Source of the DNA: Escherichia coli O157:H7 | GTDB taxonomy: Bacteria; Pseudomonadota; Gammaproteobacteria; Enterobacterales; Enterobacteriaceae | Assembly: GCF_013167455.1 (NCBI RefSeq) | Contig: NZ_CP038328.1 | Length of the DNA: 64,000 nt | Direction: 5' to 3' (one strand) | Part shown: piece after piece, positions 58,201 through 64,000 of the stretch | Position numbering within the stretch: the first letter of the stretch is position 1 | How the letters are laid out: each line of letters begins with the position of its first letter | Program-made: the position numbers

Positions 58201-61200
58201 AATGATCTGAACTACAGCAACATGACAGATTTATCGATCGATATAACACAAATGAACAGTTCTTTATTCTGACAAATATCGCAAAAACAGCACATTACAA
58301 AATTTATAACCATAATTACTGGAAAAGTGCAGAAAATTATTCCGCTGAATGCTTTTAATACAGTTGGTTAGCTTAAAAAATAGCAATTTTTGATTTCAGT
58401 CATTGAAAGTTGCAATGTTTGACGATTCAACAGCATTTAAGTGAGTTTCAGGATATGGGAAGGACATGAAAGGAGGAGCGCAATAAAATACACAGGAAGA
58501 AGGGGAAAATGTTTCGTAAAAACAGAAAATTAACAGCGCACATCAGGAAACGCAGTCTCCTGATTCAGTGCTACCACATGAAAATTTAGTTAACTGTTAC
58601 CGTACTAAAATTTATGTCAGAAGATGTTCCATTACCGAAAGTCAATCAGCGATACAAAGACGATCATGGTGCGCTTGTCACCCTGACCAGTGTTGAGGAA
58701 ACCCGGGTGGTGTTTATGCAGGACGGCTATCCGCATCCCTGCATGCGACCGATGTACAACTTTCTGGGAAAATTCAAACCCGAACCCCGGGAAGAAACAG
58801 AATAAAACGAAATCCCTGCCGGCAATCACACTACCTGATAGCAGCATAATCCACTTATTAATTCTCATCCCCGGAGACAAGCCCAGAAAACCACTCCGGG
58901 TGTTCACTGTATGCCGTGTTCAGCGCATCCCTGGAAACGTTTATATAAAAGCTGTCCTGCAATTTGCGGGTAACAACTTCTGCCAGGCGATTCCGGTTAT
59001 CCACCAGTCCGGCATAACCTCTCTCTGCCAGCCACTCATTCAGTTCATGTTCCAGAGACAGATTGATAATATCATAATCGGACCTTGCCATTCCCGTTTC
59101 CTTAGCACATGTTTTCAGGCACGGGGATAAAGTATAAAGAATGTCATACTGCTGCTGCCAGAGCAATATTCCCCCTGATGGTTGTATCAGAGATGGTATG
59201 CCGGTACTTTGCGGGTTGTTCCCGTCAGGTTATCGTGCACCTCCACGGTCGTGGTCACCACCGGCATTCCGGCCTTTCTCAGCCTCAGAACATCAGCCGC
59301 AATACGCTGACTGCCAAACCTGAACAGGCCGTCCAGTGCAGTCACCAGTAAACCCGCCTCCAGTGCATACTTCAGCCGTTCACGGGGCGCTTTCACTTCC
59401 CGGGCAACCTGCTGATATGGCAATGATGTGTTTTCATTCCCAACCACGCGACGAATACGGTGAGACAGATGATACCGGTATGTATCCGGCACACCAGAAA
59501 GGCTGGCCTTCAGGCTGTACACGCAGCCAAACCGTTTATCGTTAAACACCACATTTTTCTGGCTGATGCCCCATTCTTCACGCAGCGCGGCAATCAATTG
59601 CGGTGTACGGGTAAGCAGCAAGCGAAAAGGCAGTTCAAAACTGGTGACGTAATCCACATTCAGCAGTGCAATACGCAACCGTTCTTCTGGCCCGGCCTCT
59701 GTCTGCCGGCACTCCTCCAGAACATCCTGCCACTGCCGGCGAAGACGGGGGGATTCGTTCCGTTCTGTAAAACAGTATTTATCCGCCAGATAGTCAATTC
59801 GTGTACGCATACTGAAAGGAATTCCGTATAAAGATTCAGCAGACAAAACTTTATCAGCCAGTAAAAATTAACGGAAGCATTGATATTCCTCCCGACAATC
59901 ACCGGATGATTGTTGCAATAACCTGCGACATAAAGGACTGAACAGCCGTTTTTAACGCCACGTATTGCCCTGATGAACCAGGCCGGGCCACCCGAAAACA
60001 TCTTTCCACCCGGCATTGTCCGCCAGCACTTATCACCGACCAGGTCTGTTGCAGTAAATCCACCAGTTGCGCACATTCTTCATCAGCCATGACGCCGACT
60101 CGCGGATGGCAAATACTCGTCTGGCTGAGCAGCAACAGACATCGTATCTGTGCTCCTTCATGTTGTTCCCGCAACCAGCGTAATACCACCGGCGCTGATG
60201 GGCTGACCGTGTGATTATGCTCCGTAATACGTTCGTGTACCCGTCGGTGAAAGGAACTACAAAATGTCTGAATCTGTTGACCATAGATTCCTTCTGCCGA
60301 ATAGAGCGTGAAGTGAAATGCCAACAGATTTGGCCAGTGGTCCACCGCCTGCTGAACAAAACGCCGGATTTCCCCCGGCTCTGAAATTAAGGCTTCGGTT
60401 ATTTGCACGAAATGTTCCTTTTCAACCCCTGTTGAATTTTGTCAAGCCGGTGCAGACACAGTAAAGCGCGCATCAACACCTGAAAGGTACGATACAAACA
60501 CAAGTTACAAACAATAAGAACGGAAGGACAATTAATCAGTGAGGAATAATAACTAAATTAACCAAAAGAATGTTACTGACAATACTACCAATACTTAAAT
60601 AGCAATATATTAATTAATGTAAGAACAGATGCCCGGTAGGACATATACACAATACATCCACAAACACACTCTTTTCATTAAATCAATCACCTGATTAAAC
60701 CATGAAAGTGTGATGTAAGTCAAAATTACTGATACTATCAATTGATAATGATTATCTCTATCATTATCGTGAAATTCGAGAATGAAAGGAGAAGTAGTCA
60801 TTATAAGCCTTTTATAAATCGTCATCATCATAGTAAAGTAGAACACTTTTTATATGAGTTACTATATGAAAATATACTGGACAAGAAAACGTATTCCTGA
60901 ACTTTCAGCACTTCCACCTTCATTAAGAAAGAAAAATTTTACTGACGCATATAATGCAGCATCTTCTCATATCGAATACTGGATAGGTGCTGGCGTCTCA
61001 TTTATCTCGATGATGATTTTATCCAGAGTATATGACTTTCTTTTACCCGCCCAAGATACTTTCCCGGGTGATATCATCAGAAGTTTATGTGTTGTGTGTC
61101 CATCCATATTAATCTGGTTTCAGTTTTCGGTATATGTCATGAGGAAATATTACAGACATATTCTGGTGCGAGGAAAAGAAACCGAAACCATTTCAGAAAG

Positions 61201-64000
61201 GTTGATACGTGAGGCTGATACACGAGAATATGAACTATGGCGTCCGGTCCGTCGCTTTTTCTCCATTGTTTTCCTCATTGTTCTATTAGGTTGCATTCAT
61301 TCACTGATAACAACTATAAAATAAAAGTTATGGCTGTTCTGATACAGGAAAATAAACGTTCATTCTATGGTTACCTCTTCCTGTTATATAGAAGAATTTT
61401 AAACGACAAGTAAGGGAATATAAATGAAAATAACAAAAAATAAAAATGCAACTATAAAAAACAGTCATCAGTCGGCTGCTTTTCAATGTTTACCTTATCA
61501 TTTTCTGGTAATGCTGCCAACTTACTGATTTAGTGTATGATGGTGATTTTAAGGTGCTTGCGTGGCTTCCATTTCCATCAGATGTCCTTCCTGCTCCGCT
61601 ACTGAAGGCGTGGTGCGTAACGGCAAAAGCACTGCCGGACATCAGCGCTATCTCTGCTCTCCTTGCCGTAAAACATGGCAACTACAGTTCACTTACACCG
61701 CCTCTCAGCCCGGTAAGCACCAGAAAATCATTGATATGGCCATGAATGGCGTCGGATGTCGCGCCAGTGCACGCATTATGGGCGTTGGCCTCAACACGGT
61801 TTTACGTCACTTAAAAAACTCAGGCCGCAGTCGGTAACCTCGCGCATACAACCGGGCAGTGATGTGATTGTCTGCGCTGAAATGGACGAACAGTGGGGCT
61901 ACGTCGGTGCTAAATCACGTCAGCGCTGGCTGTTTTACGCGTATGACAGGATACGGAGGACGGTTGTGGCGCACGTCTTCGGTGAACGCACTCTGGCCAC
62001 ACTGGAGCGTCTTCTGAGCCTGCTGTCGGCCTTTGAGGTCGTGGTATGGATGACGGATGGCTGGCCGCTGTATGAATCACGCCTGAAGGGAAAGCTGCAC
62101 GTTATCAGCAAGCGTTACACTCAGCGCATTGAGCGACATAATCTGAATCTGAGACAACATCTGGCAAGGCTGGGACGGAAGTCACTGTCGTTCTCAAAAT
62201 CGGTGGAGCTGCATGACAAGGTCATCGGGCATTATCTGAACATAAAACACTATCAGTAAGTTGGAGTCATTACCTGAGAATAATACCTCCTGGGTAAGTG
62301 AGCAGATACTTTCAGCGCCTCCGAAAGATGTAAATATTCGACTTGGAGTCGGTTCTTTAGAAGGTACAACCGTCTCACATGTTCAGCGATTGCATCATTC
62401 GTTAATCGCAGCTGGTTTGGAAAGTAACCTCACTGTCTATACCGGTGGTCACGATTATGCCTGGTGGCGCGGAGCAATTATTGATGAATTAGCAAATTAT
62501 AATTGCAGGAAGGTATCAAATAATAACTCTGTGTAAAATATCGTTTTATCGTCAGATAACTCTTTCTGCAATATTATTATGGGAGACTATCTCATTTATT
62601 TAGTGATGTCCTTCATTTATGTGATGAAGGACATTATATTACTCATAACATTTCTCGTTGAAAATTTCAGCAATACGCTACAATTGTTTCCCGTTGTTTT
62701 TTAATTTTCTCATCAAAACCTCTGCAATCTCTGCAGGACTGGGTTGTTCAGCCATTTCAGCGGCTACCTGATCTGAACAGAAGCGTAGTGAATCATCATA
62801 AAGAAGGCGATTTACCAAATCACTGGTCAGTCCATGCTTGTCCGGAATAATCCCACACCCACGCTTCGCAACAATTTCTGCATTAACAGAGCGATCTGCA
62901 CCTTCGCCAAACACAATCTGTGGTATTCCACTATACAGCGCTGTCAGGGTATTACCTGCGCCACCGTGATGAATAAATCCATCAGCTCCATTAAGGAATA
63001 CACCCATAGGTATCCAGTCAACCAGACGTACATTTGATGGTAGTTTTCGTAAACCAGTACGAGCATTTATTGCAAGTTGCAAAATGATATCAGCATCAAC
63101 TTCATTTGCAGAATCCATAACCCATGAAATCAGCTCCAGACCATCAACCATTGGTTTTACAGTGCCAAGGCTGATAAGTAAACGTTTCCGATCAGAATCC
63201 CTGTCCCACCATGTTTCCTTTACAGCACCTCCGTTATAAGGAATATATCTCATTGAGATAACCGGTTCTCCAGCATTTTTAAGAATGCTCATACTTGGGG
63301 GAGCAACATCAATCCATGCTAAATCACATAGTGGACCGCTGACTCCATGCCGCCTGTAAGCATTGCTTAAAGAACGGTTTAACATCTGAATATGGGCAGA
63401 TGTATGCGCGAATCCAACAGCCAGCATCACTGAAGGAATTCTATATTTAGCAGCAACCAATGGGCCTGCCGGATCAAGAGGGGGATAGACTATTAAATCT
63501 GGCCTCCATTTTCCTGCAAAATCGATGAGGTTATCTGCCATTTCATCGCTAAAAAAAGAGAAATGACCAATAATATTACTTTTTTTCCTCAACTCTTCCT
63601 GATGGCGATATCCAGCCTCTGAATCTAAACCTGGAACTGCATCAAAAACAACCAGTCCAGCTTCTGCTGCTTTATTCGCGAATTTGCCAGCGCTACTAAT
63701 TACTACATCATGTCCAATTACACGAAAGGCCTGAGCCAGAGAAATCAATGGGTATAACAAACCGTACAGCGGTGGGCCAATAAAAAGAATACGTTTTCGC
63801 ATTAAAAAAGTCCGTCTTCTGCTTACCTGTTTATTTTTCTATCTCTAAGAAAACATAATTAATATTATTTTTATGTGAGCTTATGCACAAAAATAACCAA
63901 GTATATTATCTTCTGGTAGAGATTCAGGATACAGTTTGTAGGAGCTTTCTTTTTTGAACAATGATTTGCAGGACAGTTATGCTAAACTAGCGGAATCAGT

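Follow-up and report, generated by a model that had tools for sequence, protein, structure and literature searches.

Five open reading frames (ORFs) at positions 58614-61324 of a 64,000-nucleotide stretch of Escherichia coli O157:H7 DNA (contig NZ_CP038328.1, assembly GCF_013167455.1; hereafter the window) lie in the tellurite-resistance and adherence island SpLE1 / OI-43/48, as indicated by genome matches and the literature. On balance, this block appears to be a mosaic of three unrelated mobile-element pieces in that island, with no enzyme system and no immunity locus. The first piece would be a 63-aa ORF for a truncated protein of the RgdR (DUF4222) family, whose members are small regulators borne on prophages. 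The second piece may be a trio of minus-strand genes (encoding 169, 207, and 77 aa) derived from the stretch downstream of the AlpA-like gene in islands of the CP4-57/CP4-6 type, and the third an AT-rich cassette, consisting of a 152-aa ORF and the remnant of a CPBP gene, carried within a 3.7-kb insertion. Within the trio, the 169-aa protein may bind but not nick DNA, its probable role being that of an AlpA-linked island factor for regulation or origin recognition. The 207-aa ECs1377 protein may act alone in regulation, through sequence-specific DNA binding, and the acidic 77-aa protein would be an accessory. The insertion would have separated the 169-aa gene from the AlpA-like gene that usually lies upstream of it. 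The features of the block are as follows, in window coordinates:

58614-58805, plus strand: 63-aa ORF with a DUF4222 domain, found by the ORF scan and annotated in RefSeq.
58779-58791, minus strand: weak terminator-like hairpin from a consensus scan, 67 nt past the stop of the 77-aa gene.
58858-59091, minus strand: acidic 77-aa ORF without a family, nested in a 102-aa ORF that starts from a TTG at 59166.
59187-59810, minus strand: 207-aa gene of the ECs1377 family, with an ATG at 59810; the frame is open to a TTG at 59846 (219 aa).
59899-60408, minus strand: 169-aa gene of the UCP030791 family, with a GTG start.
60429-60546: conserved leader 5' of the 169-aa gene, which is also the left junction of the 3.7-kb insertion.
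60866-61324, plus strand: 152-aa ORF for a predicted membrane protein, from the RefSeq start (156 aa from an ATG at 60854).
61424-61506, plus strand: what is left of a CPBP (Abi-type) intramembrane protease gene after truncation by IS1; a RefSeq pseudogene at 12025-12107 of the EDL933 locus (L001).

A preliminary description of the window had placed five ORFs between a cdi-like remnant and IS1. The ORFs are indeed present, with two starts revised (from 219 to 207 aa and from 156 to 152 aa), and the block is bounded by a POTRA/cdiB-like remnant (56893-58026) and IS1 (about 61502-62274). The DNA had also been called AT-rich, which is accurate only for 60409-61561 (G+C content, GC, of 32-37%) and not for 58614-60408, where four of the five ORFs lie at 50.5% GC against a window mean of 49.1%; the AT-rich part is due to the 3.7-kb insertion. 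Moreover, the ORFs had been listed as having no nameable family, which remains true of the 77-aa and 152-aa ORFs but not of the other three, which belong to PF13973 (63 aa), NF052300 (207 aa), and PF27752 (169 aa). Ratios of nonsynonymous to synonymous substitution rates (dN/dS) in pairwise comparisons with homologues are 0.08-0.19 for the 207-aa gene, 0.31-0.54 for the 169-aa gene, 0.22-0.31 for the 77-aa gene, and 0.10-0.28 for the 152-aa gene, with a value of 0.74 (one comparison) for the 63-aa gene. Since these ratios point to purifying selection and each of the five ORFs has protein homologues elsewhere, be it in further strains or in other genera, they are more than chance frames, and the earlier caution that they might be spurious calls conserved in no other genome can be set aside.

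The 207-aa gene starts at the ATG at 59810 according to RefSeq and the homologue alignment, and its product is the namesake of the NCBIfam 'ECs1377 family' (NF052300), which it matches over the entire model (1-190 of 190) at 319.5 bits against an equivalog cut-off of 190. It does not differ from that family (also phrog_24243), for which the label 'DNA-binding protein' in some annotations is a prediction. The protein is basic (pI 9.7) and has a C-terminal winged-helix fold. The Pfam HTH_39 model scores below its cut-off (18.4 bits against 21.3), and in comparison with MarR/ArsR-type and tandem winged-helix proteins (ScpB, the SelB C-terminus, ESCRT-II, and TFIIIC tau138) the 207-aa protein has no sequence-level membership. 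ECs1377, in whose sequence an internal repeat was seen, is probably a tandem winged-helix DNA-binding protein, with DNA binding predicted from its fold and charge.

In a scan of 100,044 species genomes for relatives of ECs1377, 80 loci were retained, with orthologues of 57-72% identity in about 79 Enterobacterales species and one locus that is a likely contaminant contig. The latter (L088) is a 422-bp, low-coverage contig of Macrococcus carouselicus bearing a 93%-identical ECs1377 fragment, almost certainly E. coli contamination. When all neighbouring ORFs were clustered, no family was common to more than 13 of the 80 loci. Homologues of about 64% identity were also found on 536 plasmid records, mostly from E. 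coli and Shigella, 495 of which are typed as conjugative. The plasmid context was examined in one record, an IncK2/Z plasmid (L012; NZ_AP022813.1, 37995-38618), where the homologue lies in the variable region between trbA and excA, near nuc, dqlB, and hok/pnd. The yggA gene of IncI1 plasmids was considered as the plasmid homologue and rejected, as it is a different gene and the trbA-excA region of pESBL lists no ECs1377 homologue. An Erwinia prophage holds a further homologue in an accessory slot between recET-like genes and tail fibres. ECs1377 is a stand-alone, strongly conserved single-gene module (dN/dS about 0.1). A literature search returned no work on the function of ECs1377, of YagK/YfjJ, or of island proteins labelled 'inovirus Gp2 family'.

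The neighbourhood of ECs1377 bears on whether the protein is instead a dedicated regulator of a downstream contact-dependent antagonism operon, which would be cdiBA-like here and a type VI secretion system (T6SS) in other genera. ECs1377 is upstream of and co-directional with a ShlB/cdiB gene both in the window and in locus L003, and in Kosakonia and Citrobacter its orthologues of about 70% identity lie directly upstream of tssB. In one E. coli strain (L011; NZ_AP045174.1, 6990-7166), a truncated ECs1377 is joined directly to a 5'-truncated tssF pseudogene, which implies that T6SS cargo once followed ECs1377 immediately in this type of island. Within 10 kb downstream of ECs1377, T6SS genes occur in about 6 and ShlB in 3 of the 80 species-level loci, which is probably above background, given an expectation of 1-2% that is a rough estimate and not computed. 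However, about 85-90% of the species-level loci have neither T6SS nor ShlB near ECs1377, and the absence of any widely shared neighbour family noted above points the same way. The orthologue in Kosakonia cowanii follows hutH with no T6SS, and the homologues in the plasmid variable region (the IncK2/Z example) and in the prophage stand alone. The enrichment near T6SS and ShlB may also be explained by shared residence in hot spots of horizontal transfer. A dedicated role in antagonism is thus unlikely for ECs1377, and we favour a regulator that acts alone.

The minus-strand trio ends with the gene for the 77-aa protein, which is acidic (pI 4.55) and labelled hypothetical in RefSeq and has no match in Pfam, NCBIfam, PHROGs, or PDB sequences; PDB sequence searches with the 63-, 152-, and 207-aa proteins likewise gave no significant match. 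The 77-aa protein is 86-95% identical in other E. coli islands, and a Vibrio vulnificus plasmid carries a lone homologue of 35% identity. Its gene follows ECs1377 in E. coli and E. albertii, and not elsewhere. A conserved pairing of the 207-aa and 77-aa genes was considered and rejected, as in Phytobacter and Klebsiella the small ORFs next after ECs1377 bear no relation to the 77-aa protein, and the Vibrio homologues are found on different plasmids, each alone.

The two genes are adjacent and co-directional, and their products have opposite charge (pI 9.7 and 4.55), as might be expected if they, or the block as a whole, formed a toxin-antitoxin, defence, or anti-defence unit. Possible defence genes are also nearby, including a helicase with similarity to MkoA/MkoC, Hhe, and ProA, and in other islands members of UCP030791 border cargo with a reverse transcriptase and AAA_15. 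Nevertheless, none of the five ORFs had a meaningful PADLOC match; what hits there were stood at chance level (E 0.017-0.025), with the 102-aa form of the 77-aa ORF and with an unannotated 78-aa ORF that is not one of the five. Only in E. coli and E. albertii is ECs1377 accompanied by the 77-aa gene, and as a single gene ECs1377 is stably kept in about 79 species, which makes such a unit quite unlikely.

The 169-aa protein has no direct match in Pfam (E ≤ 0.1, local copy), NCBIfam, PHROGs, or PADLOC. Its E. coli homologues are annotated as 'UCP030791 family putative phage-derived protein' or 'YagK/YfjJ domain-containing protein', and all 120 of the 120 listed homologues (63-96% identity) carry PF27752 (UCP030791) in precomputed assignments, through which membership of the 169-aa protein was taken. 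The family is narrow, with 45 representative clusters (E ≤ 0.001) among 1.84 billion proteins. Profile-profile comparison (hhalign) of the 169-aa family with YagK/YfjJ gave a probability of 89.8% and an E-value of 1.8e-6 over 115 columns. The PF11726 model did not match the 169-aa protein itself, and a 70%-identical homologue scored 21.2 bits against a cut-off of 25.8. Like YagK of CP4-6 and YfjJ of CP4-57, which belong to PF11726 and are related to PF23343 (REP_ORF2-G2P), the protein has a palm-like fold of the Rep type. Polymerase palm and GGDEF domains match this fold equally well, and therefore the fold alone is not diagnostic of an HUH Rep.

Unlike YagK and YfjJ, the 169-aa protein lacks both the H-U-H motif and the tyrosine region and is placed in a Pfam family of its own, PF27752. 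The HYH/HAH of the paralogues aligns with Q-I-R in the 169-aa protein and with x-C-R in the family consensus, and the protein stops before the region corresponding to the invariant Y-L-x-K-x-E-x-K of YagK/YfjJ. Its sole candidate tyrosine, Y148 ('QY'), varies among Y, F, H, and L across the family. The absence of HUH and of a conserved tyrosine also sets it apart from the HUH rolling-circle Reps, such as the nuclease domains of SIRV1 ORF119, AAV Rep, and parvovirus NS1. We conclude that the 169-aa protein is a Rep-fold, divergent relative of YagK/YfjJ whose nickase chemistry appears to have been lost. Since the nickase motifs are gone yet purifying selection persists, it is probably a DNA-recognition factor.

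The genomic context of the 169-aa gene is also like that of yagK and yfjJ, as it belongs to the same island backbone with an AlpA-like helix-turn-helix (HTH) gene, YfjI/DUF3987, and YagK/YfjJ paralogues. In six E. coli loci (L002-L004, L011, L014, and L015), the genes lie on one strand in the order YfjI (DUF3987), YagK/YfjJ (188 aa), a 190-aa hypothetical protein, the AlpA-like HTH protein (78 aa), UCP030791, and variable cargo, with YfjI annotated in three of the six. More distant members of UCP030791 (30-36% identity) are likewise found among AlpA-like and YagK/YfjJ-type genes, one of them also near a DUF3987 gene. These backbone genes are the set of CP4-57 (alpA, yfjI, and yfjJ) and CP4-6 (yagK), so the comparison with those two islands proposed in the preliminary description was apt, the 169-aa protein being a degenerate relative of YagK/YfjJ. 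The 169-aa and 207-aa genes are co-directional and closely spaced, as had been noticed before, with 52-88 bp between them depending on the start used. The two were considered as a conserved pair, which was rejected because in many E. coli islands the gene after UCP030791 is a ProQ/FinO gene and distant UCP030791 members have no adjoining ECs1377.

The Rep-like fold of the 169-aa protein and its kinship to YagK/YfjJ and REP_ORF2-G2P could suggest that the 169-aa and 207-aa proteins serve as initiator nickase and origin-binding protein in an active replication module for the excised island, and YfjI/DUF3987 genes are nearby in related islands. The tandem winged-helix layout of the 207-aa protein also recalls iteron-type initiators, although Foldseek gave RepE54 a probability of only 0.03-0.05 (TM 0.16-0.21), which does not place the 207-aa protein among initiators of the RepE/Rep_3 type. 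The catalytic motifs are missing from the 169-aa protein, with Q-I-R in place of HUH, no Y-L-x-K-x-E-x-K, and a variable Y148, and an active replication function is consequently unlikely for it. Moreover, there are no iteron-like repeats in 58000-61600, the two genes are not a conserved pair, and no Rep_3 or other initiator match was found in Pfam. Such a module is very unlikely on these grounds, and DNA recognition without nicking is the preferred role for the 169-aa protein. The earlier suggestion of prophage-remnant replication or regulatory genes had the right direction for four of the ORFs and is not borne out for active replication.

The 63-aa ORF matches Pfam PF13973 (DUF4222) over model positions 1-52 of 53, with 76 bits (cut-off 27) and an E-value of 1.6e-21, as well as PHROGs 1343 and 285, and is labelled a DUF4222 domain-containing protein in RefSeq. 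Its gene is convergent with the 77-aa gene. RgdR (ECs1581, on OI-51) is a small prophage DUF4222 regulator that activates LEE1 and the type III secretion system and represses motility (PMC3378721). The functional RgdR has 99 aa and an RGD motif at residues 20-22, which modulates its activity (PMC3378721). Flockhart et al. (2012) described 63-aa 'RgdR truncates', namely z1197 and z1636 on OI-43 and OI-48 of EDL933 and ecs5415 on SpLE1 of Sakai (PMC3378721). The sequence of the 63-aa ORF fits that of a truncated RgdR-family paralogue and matches this description of a 63-aa truncate. Like RgdR, it is full-length on the DUF4222 model, and the island copies are counted in the RgdR family (PMC3378721). 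Unlike RgdR, it has 63 and not 99 residues and no RGD tripeptide, and its regulatory role is a prediction.

The third piece is delimited by comparison with uninterrupted islands, to which homology stops at 60546 and restarts at a position equivalent to 64250, beyond the end of the window. The 3.7-kb insertion therefore runs from 60547 past 64000, corresponds to 11148-14850 of L001 in EDL933, and separates the 169-aa gene from the AlpA-like HTH gene, which lies beyond the window. The insertion contains the membrane-protein ORF, the CPBP remnant, IS1, a fragment of an alpha/beta-hydrolase gene, and an iroB-like glycosyltransferase gene. A repeat of about 105 bp, direct and diverged, is present at both junctions, and it looks like the product of recombination between two related islands and not like a target-site duplication.

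The ORF first given as 156 aa had been predicted to encode a membrane protein, and this stands. The 152-aa product is basic, with two or three hydrophobic segments in total, of which those at 69-93 and 126-152 are clear, and the GC of the gene is 37.5%. Only 23 homologues were found, in E. coli and Klebsiella, with 53-63% identity, and the RefSeq label is hypothetical. In related strains, the neighbour of this ORF is an intact gene for a CPBP (CAAX protease/Abi) intramembrane glutamic endopeptidase; in avian pathogenic E. coli (APEC) E12049 (L009), a 142-aa CPBP gene follows the membrane ORF. In contrast, the window retains only about 83 nt of the CPBP gene, cut by IS1 (left end at about 61502). 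The 152-aa ORF itself is not a CPBP protein according to the Pfam scan, and a homologue in Klebsiella aerogenes lies in another island without a CPBP gene. The 152-aa ORF is a real gene for a predicted membrane protein and a module separate from the other four ORFs.

Small ORFs without a family are typical of immunity genes, and CPBP/Abi proteins have been linked to bacteriocin self-immunity. The preliminary description had offered orphan immunity genes as one possibility. That the five ORFs, which are close to the cdiB-like remnant, are such genes left by a decayed contact-dependent growth inhibition (cdi) locus is nonetheless scarcely credible. Orphan modules of cdi loci sit downstream of cdiA, whereas the position of these ORFs, read on the strand of the cdiB remnant, is upstream of it. 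No Pfam immunity family (as for CdiI) or meaningful PADLOC match was found for any of the five, and three of them fall into families of DNA-binding proteins or regulators. These genes are also present at many loci that have no cdi genes, and the CPBP gene is only a remnant of about 80 nt.

Several points weigh against the mosaic as described. The link to YagK/YfjJ comes from the hhalign probability of 89.8%, one sub-threshold match of a homologue, and a fold that is not specific, and the 169-aa protein itself has no match in the local Pfam copy at E ≤ 0.1. No significant structural match was obtained for the N-terminal half of ECs1377, and the statistics of its internal repeat are weak. We infer DNA binding by the proteins of the block from fold and charge, and a regulatory role and the lack of nicking activity are likewise predictions. 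In addition, the 169-aa gene of O157 is cut off from its native upstream context and may not be expressed, and the 63-aa gene, with its dN/dS of 0.74 (one comparison), may be decaying.

Hundreds of O157:H7 chromosomes match the region 58400-61500 at 100% identity, and at least 80% of this region is present in 576 genomes. The island is named S-loop 72, OI-43/48, or SpLE1 in the literature, where ECs1377-ECs1379 are hypothetical and restricted to lineages I and I/II. In EDL933, the block is flanked on one side by iha, an IS1, the iroB-like glycosyltransferase gene, and the alpha/beta-hydrolase fragment, and on the other by the POTRA (cdiB-like) remnant, the helicase, ibrAB-like genes, and a PerC-family regulator gene, which is pchD (PMC1890555). 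EDL933 also has an insertion of the IS629/IS3 family between the POTRA gene and the DUF4222 gene, which is missing from the window. The hairpin at 58779-58791 may mark where transcription of the minus-strand trio ends; seven terminator-like sites were found against 3.1 expected in shuffled sequences, and the hairpin itself gives no evidence of function. No iterons, promoters, or non-coding RNAs above chance were detected in 57800-61700, apart from the ops/JUMPstart element described below. A 78-aa ORF in the AT-rich spacer (60610-60846, minus strand) has no family match, is unannotated in RefSeq, and is probably spurious.

On the cdi side of the block, the minus-strand ORF at 56893-58026 has N-terminal POTRA domains of the ShlB type followed by repetitive filamentous-haemagglutinin-like sequence, and looks like a deletion that fused cdiB to a fragment of cdiA. 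A perfect 12-nt ops element, GGCGGTAGCGTG, is found at 58103-58114 on the same (minus) strand, 77 nt 5' of the TTG of this ORF, which suggests RfaH-dependent transcription of the decayed cdi-like operon. The Rfam JUMPstart model scores below threshold at the site (21.3 against 35 bits). The same 12-mer also occurs inside T6SS clusters beside ECs1377 orthologues (L005-L007 and L085) and in two further ECs1377 loci (L093 and L105), and was not found upstream of the intact ShlB gene in L003. Further along, a 722-aa SF1-type helicase (53972-56652, minus strand) lies downstream of a 171-aa ORF without a family, with a 4-bp overlap. PADLOC models MkoA (5.5e-44) and MkoC (1e-40) match the helicase, and the NCBIfam anti-phage models ProA and Hhe score below their curated cut-offs; the helicase and the 171-aa ORF could be a defence gene pair.

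The block is real but ordinary, comprising small, conserved accessory genes, most of them putatively DNA-binding, of a well-studied island, with three of the five ORFs already in curated families. The present analysis adds that UCP030791 has lost the HUH and tyrosine motifs and that ECs1377 is distributed as a stand-alone gene, probably with a tandem winged-helix architecture; it also maps the 3.7-kb insertion. A broader generalization would regard UCP030791 as dead HUH-Rep paralogues providing AlpA-coupled DNA recognition in CP4-57-type islands, and ECs1377 as a mobile, stand-alone tandem winged-helix regulator of islands, conjugative plasmids, and prophages that preferentially heads cdiBA/T6SS loci; taken as a whole, this generalization is rather doubtful. 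In UCP030791, nickase motifs have gone from a backbone paralogue family of the tRNA-associated islands of E. coli while selection has been kept, which suggests a non-catalytic role in DNA recognition. ECs1377 is common on the mobile elements of pathogens and is a reasonable target for the study of regulators.

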